In this document: positions 1-23,030 of the stretch, piece by piece | Position numbering within the stretch: the first letter of the stretch is position 1 | Layout: each line of letters starts with the position of its first letter | Origin: an uncultured Chroococcidiopsis sp. | GTDB taxonomy: Bacteria; Cyanobacteriota; Cyanobacteriia; Cyanobacteriales; Chroococcidiopsidaceae | Length of the DNA: 23,675 bases | Assembly (NCBI GenBank): GCA_964248365.1 | Contig: CAXTYC010000046.1 | Coordinates: 9,306 to 32,980 of the forward strand | Direction of reading: 5' to 3' | Translations under genes and position numbers: made by a program | Notes under the pieces: generated by a model | Seen by the model: the letters and a program-made list of their open reading frames with translations, nothing else | Told to the model about the DNA's origin: nothing | Databases searched by the model: none

Positions 1-58
1 AATTCGTGAGCGCGAATTCGTGAGCGCGAATTCGTGAGCGCGAATTCGTGAGCGCTCA
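1..58. repeat. 14-bp tandem repeat (AATTCGTGAGCGCG, about 4 copies), candidate centromere (parS/parC-like) upstream of parA
   Basis: Units at 1-14, 15-28, 29-42, 43-55; ends in palindrome TGAGCGCTCA (49-58). Starts at the window edge so may be longer. The repeat is seen directly; the function is inferred from position. Confidence 0.85.
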
Positions 59-1652: not shown

Positions 1653-2090
1653 ATGACGAGACTTACCGTAGAATCTACAGCAGTTCAAAGCTATTTGAAC
1701 ATATTACAAGCAATTATAAGTAGAATGGCAACAAATAGTGCTAATTGTAAAACCTGGTGTGTAACATTAGTTTCTGCCATTCTTGTCATTATTGCTGATA
1801 AAGGAAAGACAGAATATATCTGGATTACTCTCATTCCTGTATTACTTTTCTTCTTTCTTGACGCTTATTATTTAAGCTTAGAAAGAGATTTTCGCTCCTT
1901 ATATAACACATTTATCAGAAAACTTCATACAGGAAATATCTCAGCGGATGAAGTTTTTACTATATCTGTAGATGGTAGTTTTACACATACAGTCACCTCG
2001 GTAACTAACTCTCTGCTTTCACTATCTATTTTTCCGTTCTACACATTTTTACTTGTAATGCTTGTGGTAGCAAGATTTAAAATATTTTAA
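1653..2090 (+). CDS. Small ~3-TM membrane protein, putative effector associated with the TIR gene
   Basis: Hydrophobic segments WCVTLVSAILVII, IWITLIPVLLFFFLDAYYL and LLSLSIFPFYTFLLVMLVV. The motifs RMATNS..K.W and LDAYYL..ER.FR.LY are, from my recollection, typical of small TM proteins found beside DUF1863 TIRs. Confidence 0.75.
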   Translation: MTRLTVESTAVQSYLNILQAIISRMATNSANCKTWCVTLVSAILVIIADKGKTEYIWITLIPVLLFFFLDAYYLSLERDFRSLYNTFIRKLHTGNISADEVFTISVDGSFTHTVTSVTNSLLSLSIFPFYTFLLVMLVVARFKIF

Positions 2091-2123
2091 TTTCTCTAGC
2101 TTTAAAATTAAAATTATATCAAC

Positions 2124-2642
2124 TTACCGAAGAGCTTTCTTTGCCGCCGCTTCTATCCATGAGCTAATGTTTTTGTAACCATTATCAGCTATCCAGTAAT
2201 AGGTTGGGAACAACTCAGAAAAGTACACCTTGCTTTTGATACCTCCAAGCAGAGCCATTCTACGCTCCTCCTCTATATGGAAATTATCGAACGGGTTTTT
2301 GCCCTTAGTGTCAGTCTCACCATGCTCATTCTTAAGGTTATGGATGTAGATTCCGAGAAGCCCCTTTCTACGTCTATAGCTCTCTTCAATTTCGTAATTT
2401 ACCCACTTTCTTTGAGATGTCTCTGCCCCAATCAACACTACTGTAACAGAAGTATTTGTAAGTCCATCATCTATCAATTTTTTTAGAGCAGAGTCGCCCT
2501 TTGTTTTTACCTTTTCCCAAAGCGAAGCATCGTACCAGACTGCTTCTTGTTCACCTGGTTGTACAACCCAACTATTACGAACTTGATTGACGCGCCAAAT
2601 ATCTCGCTGATAATGAAAACTAAAGAATGCACGACGTGCCAT
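2124..2642 (-). CDS. thsB: ThsB-like TIR-domain protein (DUF1863/MTH538 family)
   Basis: N-terminal RRAFFSFHYQRD.WRVNQVRN, SVTVVLIG.ET..RKWVNYEI (catalytic Glu retained), KGLLGIYI, G.NPFD. Confidence 0.9.
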   Translation of the reverse strand: MARRAFFSFHYQRDIWRVNQVRNSWVVQPGEQEAVWYDASLWEKVKTKGDSALKKLIDDGLTNTSVTVVLIGAETSQRKWVNYEIEESYRRRKGLLGIYIHNLKNEHGETDTKGKNPFDNFHIEEERRMALLGGIKSKVYFSELFPTYYWIADNGYKNISSWIEAAAKKALR

Positions 2643-2689
2643 AAGCTAACATCTGTCTCCTGAAAAATTGAAGCAAAAGAGTAAAATGT

Positions 2690-2740
2690 AAAGATGGGAA
2701 TCCCATCTTTATAGTAACTTTATAGTAAAATTATACTAAA
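2690..2740. promoter_or_regulatory. 21-bp palindrome plus three 11-bp AT-rich repeats in the divergent TIR/NACHT promoter region
   Basis: AAAGATGGGA-A-TCCCATCTTT at 2690-2710; TTTATAGTAAC/TTTATAGTAAA/ATTATACTAAA at 2708-2740. Confidence 0.55.
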
Positions 2741-2958
2741 TAAATGTATTGTGGCTAGGACTTTGATTTAACTTGATTTTTAGGGAATCTAGGTTAGACC
2801 CATTCCAGTAGAAACCATAGGTAAAGATGGAAGCTATTGTAAAGTTTTATTTCCCAATCACATAACTTATAGAACTCACAGATAAGTCAAATCTCTACTT
2901 ATACAATGCTCTAGCATCCATCTGCCATGCTAAAGCAGTAAACATTGGTGCAATAGAG

Positions 2959-5418
2959 ATGTCGAAACGCTCACTCAAATTGTCAAGAGAAGGTATTAAA
3001 ATTTCAAACAAGGCTTTGAAGAGTAAGAATTGGTCTAAAGAATATTTGGCAGGTCATCTATCTCTCTCCCCTTCAACAATTCATAACTTTTTCGCTGGAA
3101 AGCCAGTTGACCGGACAAATTTTTTATTAATTTGTGATGCACTGGCTCTGAATATACAGGAAGTTGCTGATTTATTTCCAGATGCGGAAACTGAGCCGGA
3201 TGAGCAAAAACAAGACACTAGCTTTAATATTGATGCACTAGTGCAGGAGGTACGGCAGAAAATACGAGACAGTATTATTACGCGATGCGGCATTATAAGA
3301 GTGCTAGATATGTCTCAACCGATTGGGTTGAATGATATCTATACTAAAGTCAACATCTTGGAGAAAATCACTGGACGTAGACGCAAGGAAATTCCTGAAC
3401 TCCTACTTGAATGCACGAGAGAAAATTTTGACCGCGTTGGACTATCGCGCATTACTGAGGAACGAATACCTGGACTAGATGCTATCTTGAAATATGCACT
3501 GCTTGTAATTTTAGGAAAGCCAGGAGCGGGGAAGACCACCTTTTTGAAGTATTTGGCTATAGAGTGCATATTAGGTGAAGCTTTAGATAAATTAGTGCCA
3601 ATTTTTGTCACTCTTAAAGACTTTGCTCAAGCAGCAAATCAAGTAAGCTTACTAGAGTATATCAATCAGCAATTTGACGAATGTGGAGTATCATCTGCTC
3701 AAGTTGCTAACTTATTGACTTCAGGCAGAGTTTTATTTCTACTAGATGGACTAGATGAAGTTCAAGAAAAAGATACTCTCAGGATTTTCAACCAAATCAG
3801 TGAACTGTCTAACCAAAACAAGGATAATCACTTTGTTATTACTTGCCGGATTGCAGCTAAGGAATATACTTTAGAAAAGTTTACCGAGGTAGAAGTTGCC
3901 GATTTTGACGAGTCACAGATCCAAACATTTGTTACCAAATGGTTCAAAGCGAAAGATGACGATTTAGACCAGCAGTTTCTCCAATGCCTCAAAGAAAATA
4001 AGCCAATTCAAGAACTGGCAAGCAATCCTTTGCTACTGACATTACTGTGTTTAGAGTTTGAAGATGCTGGTGACTTTCCCAATGACCGAGCAGAGTTATA
4101 TAAAAGGGCAACTAATACTCTACTAAGAAAGTGGGATGCTAAGCGTGGGATTCAGCGCGATATTGTTTACCACCAGCTATCCGTCCAGCGCAAGGAAAAT
4201 TTACTTAGCCACATTGCTATAACTACTTTTGAAAAAGGAGATTACTTTTTAAAGCAGAGACAGGTGGAGCAGTATATTGCTGATTACATTCAGAATTTGA
4301 CTGAAAAGAAAGCTGACCAAGAAACACTACAGTTAGATAGCGAAGCCGTGCTGAAATCTATAGAAGCACAGCATGGATTATTAGTGGAACGAGCGCGGGG
4401 AATTTATTCATTTTCCCATCTGACATTTCAGGAATATTTTACAGCTAGAAGTATTGTCAACAGTGCCAATCCACGAGCCTCCGACGATCCTGCTTTGCGA
4501 GGTCTGCTTTGGCATACTTTTGAGAAACGTTGGCGTGAGGTTTTTCTGCTAGTAACTGAGATGTTGTCTAGTGCAGACATTTTATTGCTGTTGATGAAGC
4601 ACACTATTGATATGTGGGCATCACAATATCGACCCTTGCAAGAGCTTTTAACTTGGGCAAGTCAAAAAGCTCGTGAAGTTTCTACTCCTTACTTTGAAGC
4701 AACAGTAAGAGCTTTTTATTTATGTCTTGTTGTTGGAATTCACATCATTGACAATTGCGATTACCCTTTTAACAAAGTTTGGCAGATTGGGGAAATATGC
4801 GCTCTTTTGTCAGCACTTGATAACAGGATCAGCTTGGATTTTTATCACGGTTGTGCTTTAGGATTTGGTATGGGTAGTTTTCATGGCTCTCTCGACCCCA
4901 GCCTTGATCTTGACTTGAATTTATGTCATGCTCGCGCCCAAGCCTCTTTAATCGGTCGTACTGCCTCTTTAGAAGCTACGGAATTTTCTAATTTTCTTGA
5001 TGAAACTGACCGCGACCATTTGTTAGACGATACTAACTTTTATACTCTCACTGATGCTTTGTATAAAGTGTTTAGCTGTAAAATTGACAGCGATTTAGAT
5101 TCATCTCTACTGTCACTAGATAATGAATTACCTCAAGGTGTATATGATGATTGGGAGAGATATGATGAATGGCGAAAAAATAGAAGTTTATCTTGGGCTG
5201 AGGAGTTAAGAGCAGTAATTATGAAGCACCGCAACATAGATTATAAGTGGCAATTGACTGATGAGGATTGGGCGCTATTGAGAGCATATTGCTATGCAAA
5301 TGGCTTGTTATTAAATTGCTTGAATAGCGAGTGCTATTGTTTGCGTGAGGTACGACAGGCAATCCAATCAACTTTATTATTGCCATTTAATGAGATTGAA
5401 AAGCTCTTACAAGCTTAG
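2959..5418 (+). CDS. NACHT (STAND) NTPase with N-terminal XRE-like HTH and C-terminal helical (NCH2-type) domain
   Basis: HTH WSKEYLAGHLSLSPSTIHNFFAGKPV; Walker A GKPGAGKTT; Walker B FLLDGLDE; ITCR sensor; NPLLL; YSFSHLTFQEYFTA; C-terminal HRNI...W.....L..Y.YAN.LLLNCLNS, typical of cyanobacterial NACHTs. Confidence 0.93.
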   Translation: MSKRSLKLSREGIKISNKALKSKNWSKEYLAGHLSLSPSTIHNFFAGKPVDRTNFLLICDALALNIQEVADLFPDAETEPDEQKQDTSFNIDALVQEVRQKIRDSIITRCGIIRVLDMSQPIGLNDIYTKVNILEKITGRRRKEIPELLLECTRENFDRVGLSRITEERIPGLDAILKYALLVILGKPGAGKTTFLKYLAIECILGEALDKLVPIFVTLKDFAQAANQVSLLEYINQQFDECGVSSAQVANLLTSGRVLFLLDGLDEVQEKDTLRIFNQISELSNQNKDNHFVITCRIAAKEYTLEKFTEVEVADFDESQIQTFVTKWFKAKDDDLDQQFLQCLKENKPIQELASNPLLLTLLCLEFEDAGDFPNDRAELYKRATNTLLRKWDAKRGIQRDIVYHQLSVQRKENLLSHIAITTFEKGDYFLKQRQVEQYIADYIQNLTEKKADQETLQLDSEAVLKSIEAQHGLLVERARGIYSFSHLTFQEYFTARSIVNSANPRASDDPALRGLLWHTFEKRWREVFLLVTEMLSSADILLLLMKHTIDMWASQYRPLQELLTWASQKAREVSTPYFEATVRAFYLCLVVGIHIIDNCDYPFNKVWQIGEICALLSALDNRISLDFYHGCALGFGMGSFHGSLDPSLDLDLNLCHARAQASLIGRTASLEATEFSNFLDETDRDHLLDDTNFYTLTDALYKVFSCKIDSDLDSSLLSLDNELPQGVYDDWERYDEWRKNRSLSWAEELRAVIMKHRNIDYKWQLTDEDWALLRAYCYANGLLLNCLNSECYCLREVRQAIQSTLLLPFNEIEKLLQA

Positions 5419-7873: not shown

Positions 7874-8470
7874 ATGTCAAAGACACAGCAAGTGCTGGAG
7901 CTTGCCCGTGAGGTGGGCGTAATTAGAGCCAAAGATGTAGAGGCACTCGGAATTCATCGTCAGTATCTAAAGCGTCTTGAACAGCTTGGATTGCTCATTC
8001 GTTCTGGACGTGGAATTTATACTTATGTTGACGCTGATATCACGGAGAGACATAGCCTGGTTGAGGCGGCTAAAAGAGTCCCATCAGGAGTTGTTTGTCT
8101 GCTCTCTGCACTTAGCTTTCACGAACTGACGACACAAGCGCCTTTCGAGATTTGGCTGGCGATCGACCAAAAAGCACGTTCTCCCAAGGAAGCTATCCTG
8201 CCTTTGCGAATCGTTTATATGTCCGGTCAAGCACTTTCAACTGGGATTGAGTCGCACTCTATTGAAGGAGTGTCAGTGCGAGTATACTGTCTCGCCAAAA
8301 CGGTTGCAGACTGCTTTAAGTATCGCAACAAAATTGGTCTTGATATTGCTCTTGAAGCGCTGCGGTCTTGTTGGAAGCAACGACGCTGCACGATAGACGA
8401 GCTTTGGCACTATGCCAAGATTTGCCGAGTGCAGAATGTAATCCGCCCTTATCTGGAATTACTTGGATGA
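7874..8470 (+). CDS. abiEi: Type IV toxin-antitoxin AbiEi-family antitoxin
   Basis: N-terminal wHTH ending RSGRGIY; GVVCLLSALSFHELTTQ; KTVADCFKYRNKIGLDIALEAL. Confidence 0.93.
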   Translation: MSKTQQVLELAREVGVIRAKDVEALGIHRQYLKRLEQLGLLIRSGRGIYTYVDADITERHSLVEAAKRVPSGVVCLLSALSFHELTTQAPFEIWLAIDQKARSPKEAILPLRIVYMSGQALSTGIESHSIEGVSVRVYCLAKTVADCFKYRNKIGLDIALEALRSCWKQRRCTIDELWHYAKICRVQNVIRPYLELLG

Positions 8471-9390
8471 ATCAAAAGCCGCAAGGTAACATAGCCAGCT
8501 CCACAAGAGCGCGACTACTTCAGCTCTCAAAGCAGCTTGGGGAAGACTTCAATCTTTTGCTAACACGATATGCTTTGGATCGTCTGCTGTACAGGTTAAG
8601 TCAATCTGAGTACAAAAATCAGTTTATTATCAAGGGAGCTACACTCTTTAGTGTGTGGCAAGGTGAACCACACAGAGCCACAAAAGATTTAGATTTACTT
8701 GGGTATGGAGTGAATGAAATTCCCGAATTGATAGAGCTTTTCAAAGCAGTTTGTCAGCAACAATGTTCGGCAGATGGTATGGAGTTTCAAGCAGAAACTA
8801 TTACCGGAGAAAAAATTAAAGAAGAGGAAGAATACGAGGGAGTAAGACTCAAAATAGCAGGTATGTTAGGAACTGCTAGAATTAACACTCAAATTGACAT
8901 TGGGTTTGGTGATGCAGTCACTCCCGCCCCTGAAGAAGTTGAGTTTCCAACTATTCTAGATTTACCAGCACCGCGTTTACGAATTTATCCTCGTGAGACA
9001 GTAGTTGCTGAAAAGTTCCAAGCAATGGTTTCCCTTGGAATAATGAACAGTCGATTGAAGGACTTTTACGATATTTGGTTTCTTTCTCGGAATTTTGAGT
9101 TTCAAGGAAGGAAGCTAGTTCAAGCTATTAAAGCCACGTTTTCACGGCGACAGACAGCAATACCTTCAACCGTACCGTTTGCTCTAACACCGGAATTTGC
9201 ATCAGATGCGGTTAAACAGCAACAGTGGAAAGGCTTTCTGAATAAGGGGCGACTCAAAATTGAGCCTCAATCATTCAGTGAAGTTGTTGCTGCATTAAAG
9301 GACTTCCTCATGCCACCTACTCTCGCAGCACAACAAGAGCAAGCATTCGAGCAACTTTGGGTTCCATCGAAAGGCTGGCGCTCTTTCTAA
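8467..9390 (+). CDS. abiEii: AbiEii/AbiGii-family nucleotidyltransferase toxin
   Basis: IIKGATL, HRATKDLDLL, QIDIGFGD, AEKFQAM, NSRLKDFYDI. ATG 8467 overlaps the antitoxin stop (ATGA); the ORF track start at 8368 is probably spurious. Confidence 0.93.
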   Translation: MNQKPQGNIASSTRARLLQLSKQLGEDFNLLLTRYALDRLLYRLSQSEYKNQFIIKGATLFSVWQGEPHRATKDLDLLGYGVNEIPELIELFKAVCQQQCSADGMEFQAETITGEKIKEEEEYEGVRLKIAGMLGTARINTQIDIGFGDAVTPAPEEVEFPTILDLPAPRLRIYPRETVVAEKFQAMVSLGIMNSRLKDFYDIWFLSRNFEFQGRKLVQAIKATFSRRQTAIPSTVPFALTPEFASDAVKQQQWKGFLNKGRLKIEPQSFSEVVAALKDFLMPPTLAAQQEQAFEQLWVPSKGWRSF

Positions 9391-17636: not shown

Positions 17637-20600
17637 TTGGTAAAACTCCCCGAAAGAAGCCCCACACCCGATTTAGTAGTAACGGCAGCGACTGCTCCTG
17701 CTTCATCCACTTGGGGCGCAACTGTTCCAGTTTCTTGGACTGTTACTAACCAAGGTTCTGCCACAGCTCTTGGCGATTGGTATGACTACATCTACGCTTC
17801 GGGTGATGACACTTTTGACGCTACAGATACTTTAGTTAGTTATGTAGAAACAGGAGACCAAACACCTCTGGCTCCTGGAGCCAGCTATACCATTAGCAAA
17901 AATATCACTATCCCGGCTTCTGCTACTGGCAAATCCTACCTGCTATTTGTTACTGACAGAGATCGCAATCAGGGCGAGACTGACGAAACGAATAATATCA
18001 AAGCGATCGCTACAATAGGTTCACCTGACTTAGTAGTGTCAGCCGCTACTGCTCCAACCGATGCTACGTGGGGACAAACTATTCCAGTTTCTTGGACTGT
18101 TACTAACCAAGGTTCTGCCACAACTCTTGGCGGCTGGTATGACTACATCTACGCTTCGGGTGATGACACTTTAGATGCCACAGATACTCTAGTAACCTCT
18201 ATAGAGGCAGGAGGTAAAACGCCCCTAGCACCTGGGCAAAGCTACACTATCTCCCAAAACATTACCATTCCAACATCTGCCACAGGTAAATCCTATTTAC
18301 TGTTTGTTACTGACAGAGATAGACAACTGTTTGAGAGTAATGAAACGAATAATGTCAAAGCGCTTGCTGCATTGGCTGCTCCTGACCTTGTTGTTTCAGA
18401 AGTCATAGCTCCTCCCCCCTCTGCGTGGAACCAAACTATTCCAATATCCTGGACTGTGACTAATCAGAGCGAGCGCGCTGCCCGACAAAGCTGGTATGAC
18501 TACATTTATGCTTCCAGCGATGCTAACTTGGATGCAAAAGACATTGTTGTCGGCAAAACTCTCATCTCGAATCAAACACCCCTAGCCCCTGGAGCTAGTT
18601 ACACCCTAACCCAAAACATTACTCTACCGACTGATGCCACTGGCAAACCTTATCTGCTAGTTGTTGCCGATGGCAGTAACGACCAACTGGAGAGCAACGA
18701 GAGCAACAACGTACTAACGACACAACTAGGAGCAAATCAATGGGTGCATATTGCTGCTGTAGTGGATGCCTCGAAGGGAATGCAGCTGTATGTGAATGGG
18801 AAACTCCGAGCTGACGAAGCCACAGATAGTCGTCCATCCGCCGCTATAGTGCTGTCTGCCAGTTTTGGCAGCGCTACCAACACTTTGAATGGACAACTGG
18901 ATGAAGTTCGCATTTGGAATGTTGCCCGCACCCAAGCCGAGATCCAAGCGAACCTTAACCAGAGTTTAACTGGTAATGAGTCCGGTCTAGTTGACTACTG
19001 GCGGTTTGACGAAGGTTCAGGAACCACTGTTACCGACCAAACAACCAATCGCAACAATGGCACGCTAATGGGCGGAACGACATGGGCTGGGTACTCTGCC
19101 CCGGTTGGCACCTCCTCTGACGCGACTGGTCAGCGCCGCTTTACCTACGACCCAACCTTCAATCAGATCACTAGCACAACTGACGAATTGGGGCGGCAGA
19201 TATTATATGACATTGACCCCACCGATGGCAATATTCGCTCTACCACCCAAGTAGTGGGTGCAGTCGGTGGAACGGATGATGTAGTCACCCGTTATACCTA
19301 CACTGCTCACGGACAAATTGACACCATTACAGATCCTTTGGGGCGGATAACAGATTACGACTATGACACTCATGGAAACCTAATTAGAACCACGTTTGCT
19401 AAAGGAACAGTGGATGAAGCCGTGCAGCGATTCGAGTATGATGCGGCTGGTAATCGTACTGCAAGTATTGATGAAAACGGTAATCGTACCCAGTATGTTT
19501 ACGATGCGCTCAACCGACTAGTCAAAGTAATTGAAGCAGATCCGGATGGTTCTGGTCCTCTCACCTCTCCTGTTACTACTTTCGCCTATGATGCTGACGG
19601 CAACCTGATTGCTACCACTGACGTACAAAATCACACAACACAGAATGAATATGATGCCCTCAGTCGCCGTACCAAAACCATTGATGCTATTGGCGGTGTC
19701 ACCTCTATCGGCTACGACGCTAAGGGTAATCCAATATCCATTACCAATCCTCTGGGTCACAAAACACAAAACAAGTATGACAGCCGCGATCGCCTAATTG
19801 AATCCATTGACCCCCAAGGTGGTCGCACTGGGTATCGCTACGACTTTGACAATAATCTTACTGCTGTCATTGACCCACTAGGCAACCGCACTAGTTATAT
19901 CTACGATGCCCGTAACCGCAAAATTCAGGAAATCGATCCTCTTGGTAATACCACTGCTTATAGCTACAATTCTGTCAATAACCTATTAGCACAAACTGAC
20001 CCAAATGGTCACCTAACTCGGTTTGTCTACGACGATCTCAATCGCCTAATCCAACAGACTGATGCCAAAGGTGGCGTGGCTACCACAAGCTATGACGCAG
20101 TGGGTAATGTCGTCGCCCAAACTGACGAACTGGGGCGGATCACCCGATATACTTATGACAATCTCAATCGGCAAACTCAAATTACCGATGCTAGTGGTGG
20201 CATTACCAAATTTGGCTATGATGCAGCTGGCAATCTGCTGTCACTCACCGATCAACTAAACCACACTACCCAGTACACCTACGATGCCCTAAATCGTCGC
20301 ACCAAAGTGACTGACCCGCTGGGCAATAGTACAAGCTATGCCTACGACGGCGTGGATAACCTCACGGCAGTAACGGATGCCTTGGGGCGTACCACCCAGA
20401 TGGGCTACGATGCGCTCAATCGCCGTACTGCCACTATCGATGCTCTAGGTAACACAACAACTACAGCGTATGATGCCTTTGGTAATGCGATCGCCCTCAC
20501 CGATGAGTTGGGGCGGACTACTAAGTTCACCTATGATGGGCGCAATTTACAAACTGCTGTCATCGATCCGCTAGGACATACCACAACCAGCCAATATGAT

Positions 20601-23030
20601 GCTCATGGCAACTTGGTGGCAATTGCCGATGCATTGGGTAACACTAGTCGCTATCGTTATGACGCTAATAATCGCAAGACAGCAGTAATCGATCCTAATG
20701 GTCAGACAACAACCACTAGTTATGATGCAGTTGGTAATGTGCTAACGATCGCCGATCCAGTAGGCAACACCACTAGCTACAGCTACGATGCACTGGATCG
20801 AGTAGTTACAGATACGAACGAACTGGGCAAAACTCGTTCCTACCAGTACGATGCTGTAGGTAATAGAATTGCTGCAACCGATCGCAACGGACGCAAGCGC
20901 ACCTTCACCTACGATGCCTTAGACCGCCAAACCGCAGAAAAATGGCTCGATGCCAATGGCAACCCCATTCGTACAATTAACTACAGCTTTGATGCAGCCA
21001 GCCAACTTACTGCTGCTGGCGACCTTGACTCAGCTTACGCCTATACTTACGATGCTGCTGGACAGCTCACATCTGTGGATAATACAGGCACGAAAGGCTT
21101 ACCAAAGGTTGTTTTGGGCTACACCTACGATGCTTTTGGCAATCGTCTTAGTGTCACGGATGCAATCACTGGTCAGCTGCATGGCACTGAAGTTTACACC
21201 TATGATGCACTAAACCGCGTTACTCGCATTACCCAAAGTGGTAACAGCGTAGTTAATAAGCGAGTAGATATGGTTTACGATGCTGCAAGCCAGATGACAG
21301 GCTTAACTCGCTATGCAGATTTAGCTGGAACGCAATCAGTTGCGAACAGTACCTATAGCTATGATGCAGCTGGAAGATTAACGCAGCTAACCCATAATCG
21401 AGGGGCAACAACTTTAGCTGCCTTAGCTTGGGTTTACGACGTTGCCAACCGCATCACTCGGTTTACCTCGCCAGATGGCATTAGCAACTATACTTACGAT
21501 GCAACTGACCAACTGACTAGCACCGATCGTAGCTTCCAGAGCGACGAGGCGTATAATTACGATGCCAATGGCAACAGAACCAACACTGGTTATCAAACAG
21601 GTAGCAACAACCGCCTGTTAAGCGATGGCTTGTATAACTACGAATATGACAACGAAGGTAATCGGACTAAGCGCACTTCTATTGCTACAGGTGAAGTTAC
21701 CGAATACACCTGGGATTATCGGAATCGGTTAACTCAAGTTGTTACCAAAGATACTGCTGGCAACGTTATCAAATCTGCCGATTACACCTACGATGTGTTT
21801 GACCGCCGCATTGCTAAATCAGTAGATCCAGATGGGGCTGGAAGTGCATTAGCCACAGTTGAGCGCTATGTGTATGACGGTGACAACATTGCTCTGGTCT
21901 TTGATGGCAATGGTACTTCCTCTCATCGCTACTTGTATGGATCGGGAGTCGATTCTTTCCTAGCGGATGAGAATGCTTCTGGACAGGTATTGTGGGCGCT
22001 ATCCAACAACCAGGGAACTGTGCGCGATCTTGTAGATTCCACAGGCACTATCCAGAACCATATCACCTATGACAGTTTTGGGCAGATTACCACCCAAACT
22101 AATACAGCAGTAGACTTCCGGTTTGGCTACACGGGGCGCGAGCTTGATCAGGAGACAGGGCAATACTATTATCGCGCACGGTACTACGACGCAGGTGTTG
22201 GTCGGTTCATTAGTGAAGACCCAATTGGGTTTACAGCTGGGGATGCAAATCTCTACAGGTATGTTGGTAATTCTCCCCTCAATGCCACAGATCCAAGTGG
22301 AAATGACTGGACTATTCCAATGCCTGGAGGACTCCTTAACCGAGCTGCCGCAGCTGGCGCAGGGCTTCTTAACCGAGCTGCCGCAACAGTAGGAGCAGCA
22401 GAGATCGCAATACCAGCAGTCGTCACAGGTGGCGTGATTGTTGGCACTCAAGAGCGAACGGCAGATGATACTGCTATACTTCGCAATCGCACTCGTAGTA
22501 ATACTGGTTATAACCCAGATTTAGATCCAAATAGGATCAATCGTCCTAGTAATGTACCACAGCTAAACATACCTAACCATACTGGTCATCCAAGGGCTGC
22601 GGATGTAGAAACAGGGACTCGTCCTTTTCCTGGCGCAGGCTCCAGGCAGGAACGAGATACTCACACTCTTCCTCGCTCTTGCCCCGCGGATTTTTCTCCA
22701 CCTTATTTTTCAAGTTCCGATGATGAAGAAAATTCGACTCCTGCATCAACTCCAGTTGGAAGGAAAGGATCGCCTTTCGATATAGAGCCTGGAATTAATC
22801 AACCTAGGACAATTGGAGGTCGCGAGTATTCAGGCCACGCTTTAGACCAAATGCAGGGACGTGGATTAACGCCATCTGTTGTAGAAAATACTGTTCAGGC
22901 AGGACAGTCAATGCCAGGAAAGAGAGCTGGAACAACTGCCCATTATGATTCTGTCAACAATGTTACTGTAATTACTGATACGGCTACTGGCCGTGTGATA
23001 ACAGCTGCTCCTGGGCGAATTAAACAGTAA
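17637..23030 (+). CDS. RHS/YD-repeat polymorphic toxin: 3 CARDB, partial LamG, YD repeats, RHS core and C-terminal RNase-like toxin; probably 5'-truncated
   Basis: CARDB (PDLVV...VSWTVTNQG...E.NETNN) at 17667, 18024, 18381; LamG (WVHIAAV, GQLDEVRIWN, YWRFDEG); many YD repeats; core YYYRARYYD...RFISEDPIG...NLYRYVGNSPLNATDPSG ending at 22301; tip YSGHALDQMQGRG. Confidence 0.9.
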   Translation: MVKLPERSPTPDLVVTAATAPASSTWGATVPVSWTVTNQGSATALGDWYDYIYASGDDTFDATDTLVSYVETGDQTPLAPGASYTISKNITIPASATGKSYLLFVTDRDRNQGETDETNNIKAIATIGSPDLVVSAATAPTDATWGQTIPVSWTVTNQGSATTLGGWYDYIYASGDDTLDATDTLVTSIEAGGKTPLAPGQSYTISQNITIPTSATGKSYLLFVTDRDRQLFESNETNNVKALAALAAPDLVVSEVIAPPPSAWNQTIPISWTVTNQSERAARQSWYDYIYASSDANLDAKDIVVGKTLISNQTPLAPGASYTLTQNITLPTDATGKPYLLVVADGSNDQLESNESNNVLTTQLGANQWVHIAAVVDASKGMQLYVNGKLRADEATDSRPSAAIVLSASFGSATNTLNGQLDEVRIWNVARTQAEIQANLNQSLTGNESGLVDYWRFDEGSGTTVTDQTTNRNNGTLMGGTTWAGYSAPVGTSSDATGQRRFTYDPTFNQITSTTDELGRQILYDIDPTDGNIRSTTQVVGAVGGTDDVVTRYTYTAHGQIDTITDPLGRITDYDYDTHGNLIRTTFAKGTVDEAVQRFEYDAAGNRTASIDENGNRTQYVYDALNRLVKVIEADPDGSGPLTSPVTTFAYDADGNLIATTDVQNHTTQNEYDALSRRTKTIDAIGGVTSIGYDAKGNPISITNPLGHKTQNKYDSRDRLIESIDPQGGRTGYRYDFDNNLTAVIDPLGNRTSYIYDARNRKIQEIDPLGNTTAYSYNSVNNLLAQTDPNGHLTRFVYDDLNRLIQQTDAKGGVATTSYDAVGNVVAQTDELGRITRYTYDNLNRQTQITDASGGITKFGYDAAGNLLSLTDQLNHTTQYTYDALNRRTKVTDPLGNSTSYAYDGVDNLTAVTDALGRTTQMGYDALNRRTATIDALGNTTTTAYDAFGNAIALTDELGRTTKFTYDGRNLQTAVIDPLGHTTTSQYDAHGNLVAIADALGNTSRYRYDANNRKTAVIDPNGQTTTTSYDAVGNVLTIADPVGNTTSYSYDALDRVVTDTNELGKTRSYQYDAVGNRIAATDRNGRKRTFTYDALDRQTAEKWLDANGNPIRTINYSFDAASQLTAAGDLDSAYAYTYDAAGQLTSVDNTGTKGLPKVVLGYTYDAFGNRLSVTDAITGQLHGTEVYTYDALNRVTRITQSGNSVVNKRVDMVYDAASQMTGLTRYADLAGTQSVANSTYSYDAAGRLTQLTHNRGATTLAALAWVYDVANRITRFTSPDGISNYTYDATDQLTSTDRSFQSDEAYNYDANGNRTNTGYQTGSNNRLLSDGLYNYEYDNEGNRTKRTSIATGEVTEYTWDYRNRLTQVVTKDTAGNVIKSADYTYDVFDRRIAKSVDPDGAGSALATVERYVYDGDNIALVFDGNGTSSHRYLYGSGVDSFLADENASGQVLWALSNNQGTVRDLVDSTGTIQNHITYDSFGQITTQTNTAVDFRFGYTGRELDQETGQYYYRARYYDAGVGRFISEDPIGFTAGDANLYRYVGNSPLNATDPSGNDWTIPMPGGLLNRAAAAGAGLLNRAAATVGAAEIAIPAVVTGGVIVGTQERTADDTAILRNRTRSNTGYNPDLDPNRINRPSNVPQLNIPNHTGHPRAADVETGTRPFPGAGSRQERDTHTLPRSCPADFSPPYFSSSDDEENSTPASTPVGRKGSPFDIEPGINQPRTIGGREYSGHALDQMQGRGLTPSVVENTVQAGQSMPGKRAGTTAHYDSVNNVTVITDTATGRVITAAPGRIKQ
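17667..18715 (+). repeat. Three intragenic CARDB repeats at exactly 357-nt period
   Basis: Copies 1 and 2 share long identical DNA blocks (e.g. TTCCAGTTTCTTGGACTGTTACTAACCAAGGTTCTGCCACA); copy 3 is more diverged. Confidence 0.85.

Follow-up and report, generated by a model that had tools for sequence, protein, structure and literature searches.

The locus

Two convergent genes are the subject of this analysis. They lie in the window, our term for the whole stretch of 23,675 nucleotides that was analysed, which forms the final 23.7 kb of a 33-kb contig from an uncultured Chroococcidiopsis sp. As the preliminary description had it, a TIR gene and a gene for a protein with three membrane helices stand tail to tail, 33 bp apart, and both reading frames are open (Table 1). 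In four out of four public runs, from four studies, a single contig spans the junction, which is thus not an assembly artefact; one of the four runs could be the source sample. There are few changes in the junction across these four runs.

Table 1. Positions of the gene pair and its flanking regions in the window
Feature	Position	Strand	Basis
3-TM membrane protein, 145 aa, PDC-M50A family, predicted effector (likely ThsF-like)	1653..2090	+	PADLOC, hydropathy, AF2
AT-rich 33-bp gap separating both stop codons	2091..2123	.	sequence
ThsB TIR (DUF1863), 172 aa, PDC-M50B family, predicted signal synthase	2124..2642	-	Pfam, PADLOC, PDB
Region upstream of the TIR gene, shared divergently with the HTH-NACHT gene	2643..2958	.	

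The GC content is 32% in the membrane protein gene, 42% in the TIR gene and 45% in the window. A sequence scan found no terminator-like consensus site in the gap. The scan gave one terminator-like site against 0.7 expected by chance, and promoter-like sites were not above chance (7 against 5.4 expected). At 2689-2711, 47 bp ahead of the TIR start, is an inverted repeat with a 10-bp stem. It could be an operator or attenuator, but chance alone would be expected to give a single site of this kind.

The window carries a ParA-type ATPase, a CyRepA1 replication protein, a tyrosine recombinase, an AbiE pair, a NACHT protein and an RHS-repeat protein, and from this cargo we infer that the contig is plasmid-like. 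The nearest named homologues of the window are from Nostoc and Pseudanabaena, in keeping with a cyanobacterial contig. A 14-bp tandem repeat at window positions 1-55, which enters the window out of the assembly gap preceding it, and a pair of 24-bp direct repeats at 153-200, ahead of parA, are possibly centromere- or iteron-like sites. The other conflict-related cargo consists of an HTH-NACHT-NCH2 protein (2959-5418), an AbiEi/AbiEii pair (7874-9390) and a CARDB/RHS-repeat protein of 1,797 aa (17637-23030). We considered the neighbouring NACHT gene as a third component and rejected it, as look-alikes occur elsewhere in the genome and in relatives without the cassette. The cassette is accessory: its DNA was not found in the 40 relatives searched, and the one relative with a similar partition gene lacks it at that place.

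The TIR protein is close to type I ThsB

The preliminary description had recognised an intact DUF1863 TIR with a catalytic glutamate in the motif WVNYEI. The profile searches bear this out, with a Pfam ThsB_TIR/DUF1863 match at E 2.2e-27 and the motif starting at residue 80, so that the glutamate is E84. In PADLOC, the protein matches ThsB1 (E 3.7e-66) and PDC-M50B (E 7.5e-65 over residues 1-169). The closest solved chains are 9B7D and 6LHY, the latter B. cereus ThsB, at E 1e-37, and in the alignment E84 is in register with their catalytic E85. A study of ThsB shows that E85 is required for the production of cADPR isomers (PMC10022894).

In a quick tree of 104 TIRs, in which the comparators came from Bacillales only and from which CAP12-type, SEFIR, weak and off-length TIRs had been excluded, the window TIR falls in a clade of 55 rows (SH-aLRT 99). 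This clade includes four of the six ThsB proteins partnered with SIR2-SLOG and 50 TIRs partnered with the membrane protein family; none of the Macro-, SLATT- or caspase-partnered TIRs of the tree is in it. TIRs partnered with the membrane protein family are also found in other clades. The grouping with type I ThsB favours 3'cADPR as the likely signal, because the closest relatives of the window TIR are the type I enzymes that make this molecule. The earlier suggestion of a different signal is for the same reason not favoured.

The likeness to type I Thoeris of B. cereus MSX-D12 (6LHY) lies in the TIR, a close relative with its catalytic glutamate in register; the difference is that the SIR2-SLOG ThsA of type I was not found in the window or genome here. 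The preliminary description had reported no SIR2-SLOG, Macro or caspase effector in the window, and none was detected in its main reading frames (16 compared with Pfam/NCBIfam and 14 with PADLOC). In profile searches whose positive controls were detected, SIR2_2 and the CAP12-type TIR were not found in the genome. Matches to STALD and to ThsA_Macro were also lacking in the genome, in searches whose positive controls were silent. Overall, no ThsA was found in the window or the genome.

The genome is 99.97% complete and has only two TIR_2 matches, each beside a member of the membrane protein family. The second locus, on contig C38 (L001:5466-7723), encodes a PDC-M50A paralogue of 160 aa with 28% identity to the window protein, 101 bp upstream of a co-directional SEFIR-PfkB gene. 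The SEFIR-PfkB fusion, which includes a sugar-kinase domain, has 557 aa and matches PADLOC bSEFIR.

The membrane protein belongs to a large family with conserved polar residues

The 145-aa protein has hydrophobic peaks near residues 38, 64 and 130 in a hydropathy analysis, in line with the three membrane helices first proposed. The AF2 monomer model has long helices at 9-50, 53-93 and 127-144, with a mean pLDDT of 95. Four PADLOC models of PDC-M50A match the protein, the best at E 2.3e-32 over residues 12-141, and no Pfam or NCBIfam family was matched at E 0.01. The family is large and comprises 3,579 relatives when clustered at 50% identity (E 0.001). No fused sensor domain was found in the 18 longer relatives scanned with Pfam, and a scan of viral contigs using the window protein gave no match.

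Polar residues near the membrane had been singled out in the preliminary description. Their conservation holds, though the spacing given as RMATNS..K.W does not, as the gap from S29 to K33 is three residues. The polar positions that are conserved best among 272 homologues are Q19, R24, N28, S29, K33, D70, E77, R81 and S123 (90-100%), including R24 at 100%, K33 at 96%, D70 and E77 at 99% and R81 at 90%; W35 is at 96%. These polar positions border the membrane segments, being located on the N-terminal helix and on the helix after TM2, and presumably face the cytoplasm. Since these residues are nearly invariant while the partner TIRs vary widely, the pattern fits a small-molecule receptor.

The structure searches were largely blank. 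Neither Foldseek of the monomer model against the PDB nor a search of a viral structure library gave a match at E 0.001; in the viral library, a DUF2270 protein ranked third (E 1.1). A sequence profile found nothing in the PDB. VIA-align returned generic helical matches, the best (Z 9.2) to unrelated helical proteins. In the ESM Atlas, unnamed clusters came first, followed by 8xMP (PF24838) at 0.85-0.86; this is a lead only, and 8xMP is weakly matched by 6 of 113 relatives. These blank searches do not show a new fold. A four-copy complex prediction scored 0.12 against a mark of 0.42, four not being the expected ring size.

The membrane protein family is linked to TIR genes

Enrichment of the membrane protein's homologues beside TIR genes was a central expectation, and it is what we observe. 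Among the best 80 of at least 513 confirmed genome loci, 71 have a TIR gene within 400 bp, compared with 2 of 119 positions taken 3.5-3.9 kb away as controls. The loci were retrieved with a Bacillus-centred alignment as query; TIRs were called with local profiles, and weaker calls were checked against Pfam and PADLOC. These counts overstate independence, because the 71 linked loci (from the best 80 of at least 513) include kin, among them several from Neobacillus and Poribacteria, as well as a small number of broken TIRs. Of the nine loci without a TIR in that set, two lie less than 200 bp from the end of a contig.

The linkage recurs in other collections. On viral contigs, 14 of 17 loci have a TIR within 400 bp; the corresponding counts are 10 of 19 for the closer metagenome loci (some of the other nine being on short contigs) and 7 of 10 for the strong cyanobacterial loci, both loci of this genome included. 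All eight annotated plasmid or phage regions that were fetched have an annotated TIR gene, neighbouring or one gene away. Thus, the partnership between TIR and membrane protein is real. The partner classes comprise ThsB, TIR_2, CAP12-type, SEFIR, TIR-NB-ARC-WD40 and Roc-COR-TIR proteins.

Our own profiles for SIR2-SLOG, Macro-TM, SLATT and caspase effectors gave no match in the loci bearing the membrane protein (L001-L148). We therefore suggest that the membrane protein usually fills the effector slot alone. Viewed from the TIR side, only 1 of 30 Bacillales ThsB loci has a partner from this family. Five weak cyanobacterial matches (L012-L016; E 5e-7 to 5e-6) were excluded as a different family with no TIR in flanks of about 1.5 kb; one of them was scanned against PADLOC and had no PDC-M50A match.

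The convergent layout is uncommon and recurs

The preliminary description had called the tail-to-tail layout atypical. It is indeed uncommon, yet it is not confined to the window. Among the 71 linked loci (from the best 80 of at least 513), the membrane protein gene precedes the TIR gene in 46 and follows it in 17; TIRs are on both sides in 3, and the pair is convergent in 4 and divergent in 1. Co-directional pairs thus make up 66 of the 71, unlike the pair in the window. A convergent pair is also found in another cyanobacterium (L011). The nearest relatives of the window TIR (71% identity) are divergent to membrane protein genes whose products are just 54% identical to the window protein. Because the convergent layout recurs and these nearest relatives are divergent, the two modules are taken to be reshuffled in cyanobacteria. 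The layout is the only unusual feature of the pair. It would not prevent function, since a diffusible signal needs no co-transcription.

The pair matches PDC-M50 and is likely a type V Thoeris system

The preliminary description allowed that similar pairs might already be catalogued, and they are. The pair corresponds, by profile matches, to the PADLOC candidate system PDC-M50, with both component models (PDC-M50A and PDC-M50B) strongly matched by adjacent genes, the B component 33 bp from the A component. This removes the novelty first claimed for it. The difference is that the window genes face each other, unlike those of most family loci. The assignment is by profile matches and adjacency. 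The PDC set comprises 145 untested phage defence candidates, according to its description (bioRxiv 10.1101/2024.01.29.577857), the main text of which does not name M50. No mention of the term PDC-M50 was found in the papers searched.

ThsF, DUF2270 and type V Thoeris appear in the relevant sense only in a preprint of December 2025 (bioRxiv 10.64898/2025.12.03.692087) among the matches listed. This preprint validates type V Thoeris as ThsB together with a three-helix membrane effector, ThsF, which is annotated as DUF2270 and triggered by 3'cADPR. ThsF has no separate sensor domain, and in the model it forms a heptamer whose basic pockets lie at the subunit boundaries. The idea of a ligand-gated membrane effector without a sensor domain, put forward in the preliminary description, is thus how type V is described. 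In the same source, type V occurs in about 1.2% of genomes and is enriched in Bacteroidota, its TIR cluster is shared with types I and IV, and one type V variant is not triggered by 3'cADPR. The named systems come from B. thuringiensis DAR 81934 and Bacillus sp. 1NLA3E; two plasmid searches listed 60 of 136 and 40 of 145 records, and no plasmid of the validation strains was among those listed. The effector is placed as 'adjacent' in the methods and in operons in the text (bioRxiv 10.64898/2025.12.03.692087).

The window pair resembles type V in many respects. It has a stand-alone ThsB, from a type I-like clade and with a glutamate at the catalytic position, beside a small protein with three predicted membrane helices and without a separate sensor domain; the effector gene adjoins thsB at 33 bp but is on the opposite strand. 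The conserved R24, K33 and R81 would be compatible with the basic pockets of the type V ring. DUF2270 is the top weak Pfam match of the family. The differences are that this match is sub-threshold, that the comparison with ThsF is by description, and that the window genes are convergent and cyanobacterial whereas the named systems are from Bacillus.

The DUF2270 label deserves closer attention. The window membrane protein has no match to DUF2270 (PF10028), while 17 of 113 relatives match it weakly (best E 0.0012), as do 11 of 42 in a second set; the best E-values among family members are 0.0009-0.002. These matches score higher than SLATT controls. In a profile-profile comparison (HHalign), the family and true DUF2270 align with a probability of 9-10% over 40 columns, or 0.2% in global mode. 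Above the cut-off, DUF2270 was found in none of 381 Bacillales genomes, none of 201 genomes of Cyanobacteriota and 1 of 221 of Bacteroidota, with no TIR in its flanks. The membrane protein family itself is present in Bacillus and Bacteroidota; in the latter it occurs in 6 of 221 genomes, the centre genome included, and is beside a TIR-like gene in 5. The preprint is silent on whether its label reflects a threshold or a remote match (bioRxiv 10.64898/2025.12.03.692087). True DUF2270 was not found in the Bacillales genomes searched, though both type V systems named there come from Bacillus, and in Bacteroidota it was found less often than the membrane protein family; this suggests that the label is a remote annotation of the PDC-M50A family. 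The weak profile-profile comparison with true DUF2270 speaks against this, as do the single partner among 30 Bacillales ThsB loci and the lack of a description of ThsJ in the preprint text. Thus, with ThsF compared by description and not by sequence, the pair is a likely member of type V, and it would tie PDC-M50 to type V Thoeris.

Other known systems fit less well. For type II, there is no Macro-TM protein in the window, and none was found in the genome in a search whose positive control was silent. For type VII, SLATT_6 is matched by 1 of 113 relatives (E 0.008), and none of eight SLATT-type proteins reaches 1 bit with the family profile. The type VII effector ThsH is a small, nucleotide-gated membrane effector with a SLATT domain (bioRxiv 10.64898/2025.12.03.692087). 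The window protein is likewise small and in the membrane, and it has no sequence match to ThsH or to PycTM. PycTM, of the Pycsar system, is a small membrane effector gated by a nucleotide signal. The likeness to PycTM drawn in the preliminary description stands as an analogy and goes no further, as there is no PycTM match at E up to 1 and no cyclase was found in the window.

Proposed mechanism and alternatives

We suggest that the pair is a PDC-M50 system and probably a type V Thoeris system, in which a TIR signal, likely 3'cADPR, would open a membrane ring and the infected cell would be stopped. The observations behind this are the intact genes, the family matches, the glutamate at the catalytic position, the conserved polar residues and the linkage of the family to TIRs. 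In this scheme, the TIR would sense the phage and make a cyclic ADP-ribose from NAD+, most likely 3'cADPR. The membrane protein would form a ring, with the cyclic ADP-ribose binding at predicted conserved basic pockets. The ligand-bound ring may then open or disrupt the membrane, and this would stop the infected cell. Because the signal would be diffusible, the two genes would not have to be co-transcribed.

Several points speak against type V. The window protein has no DUF2270 match and those of its relatives are weak, few Bacillales ThsB loci have a partner from this family, 9 of the 19 closer relatives have no TIR within 400 bp, and most linked pairs are co-directional, unlike this one. In addition, the partner TIR classes of the family (TIR_2, CAP12-type, SEFIR and TIR-STAND) need not make one signal. 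Alternatively, the membrane protein may be not ThsF but ThsJ, the effector of type IX, or one of the other putative membrane effectors of the preprint, likely gated by another or an additional molecule. We regard this as unlikely, though it is the strongest of the alternatives. The DUF2270 similarity is below every threshold, and the family pairs with many TIR classes. In addition, the nature of ThsJ is not described in the preprint text, and the type IX TIR, from Bacillus, makes 3'cADPR without that molecule triggering toxicity (bioRxiv 10.64898/2025.12.03.692087). Yet the three-helix topology and the top-ranked weak DUF2270 match fit the description of ThsF, as do the clade shared with type I TIRs and the presence of the family in Bacillus and Bacteroidota.

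The roles could also be reversed, with the membrane protein sensing phage damage or a phage protein and activating the TIR by contact, so that the TIR kills by draining NAD+. The preprint cautions that this may be how some of the untested pairs act, and it treats the CAP12-type TIR as an NAD+-depleting effector class (bioRxiv 10.64898/2025.12.03.692087). The family does occur beside CAP12-type TIRs and beside SEFIR proteins. SEFIR proteins are also an NAD+-depleting effector class. We nonetheless find this reading very improbable, as the window TIR is a stand-alone ThsB close to signalling ThsB, and diverse partner TIRs set against near-invariant polar residues are easier to reconcile with a site for a small molecule than with an interface between proteins. 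The least credible reading is a rearranged remnant, in which inversion or separate insertions left both genes uncoupled or silent on the plasmid-like contig: the convergent layout, the differing GC contents, the reshuffling seen in the nearest TIR relatives and the existence of relatives with broken or missing TIRs would agree with it, but neither frame is broken and every key residue is in place, the same junction occurs in all four runs, and convergent pairs recur in L011 and in 4 of the 71 linked loci (from the best 80 of at least 513).

Implications

The pair adds a cyanobacterial, plasmid-borne candidate member to a catalogued family. Its convergent layout offers a natural test of whether Thoeris partners need a shared diffusible signal and not an operon. 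If confirmed, one small membrane family accompanies many bacterial TIR classes, SEFIR and CAP12-type included, and the PDC-M50A family could be a convenient reporter for the signals of its partner TIR enzymes.

A further idea, which we consider doubtful, is that PDC-M50A is a very large family (more than 3,500 clusters at 50% identity) distinct from ThsF and a general reader of TIR signals. If so, it would serve ThsB, TIR_2, CAP12-type, SEFIR and TIR-STAND enzymes from separate transcription units, and its paralogues, which in this genome adjoin both TIR genes found, may decode different or new ADP-ribose signals. The TIR and SEFIR proteins now supposed to drain NAD would then become signal synthases.

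Variant loci of the family

Several loci depart from the usual pair. In seven Bacillales loci (L026, L028, L030-L032, L034 and L036), a CAP12/Pycsar-type TIR of about 335 to 370 aa, a class usually read as an NAD-draining effector, adjoins the membrane protein gene. At L165:93-2210, also from Bacillales, a SIR2-SLOG ThsA, a ThsB and a gene of the membrane protein family, the last cut by the contig end, stand in a row; two effectors may share one TIR here. Two divergent membrane paralogues, by eye one of the window type and one of the C38 type, lie in tandem at L133:3956-5019 and L134:3956-5027 with no TIR within 400 bp. Beside the closest cyanobacterial relatives (L004:1057-1671, L006:736-1332 and L124:755-1165) there is a protein of about 200 aa with at most a faint TIR_2 match (E 1e-4 in one), possibly a divergent TIR family. 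At L064:5433-6131, L136:2090-2953 and L082:4418-4975, the TIR is replaced as neighbour by a SLOG cluster-3 or nucleoside-deoxyribosyltransferase-like gene. At L084:1434-5399, a 1,321-aa frame with methyltransferase domains of the Eco57I/MmeI type carries the membrane domain at its C terminus and is either a fusion or the result of a lost stop. Finally, a 14-kb Vibrio phage record (PQ189363.1; L194:1347-2635) carries ThsB and the membrane protein gene directly after an integrase, and two further records like it were matched.
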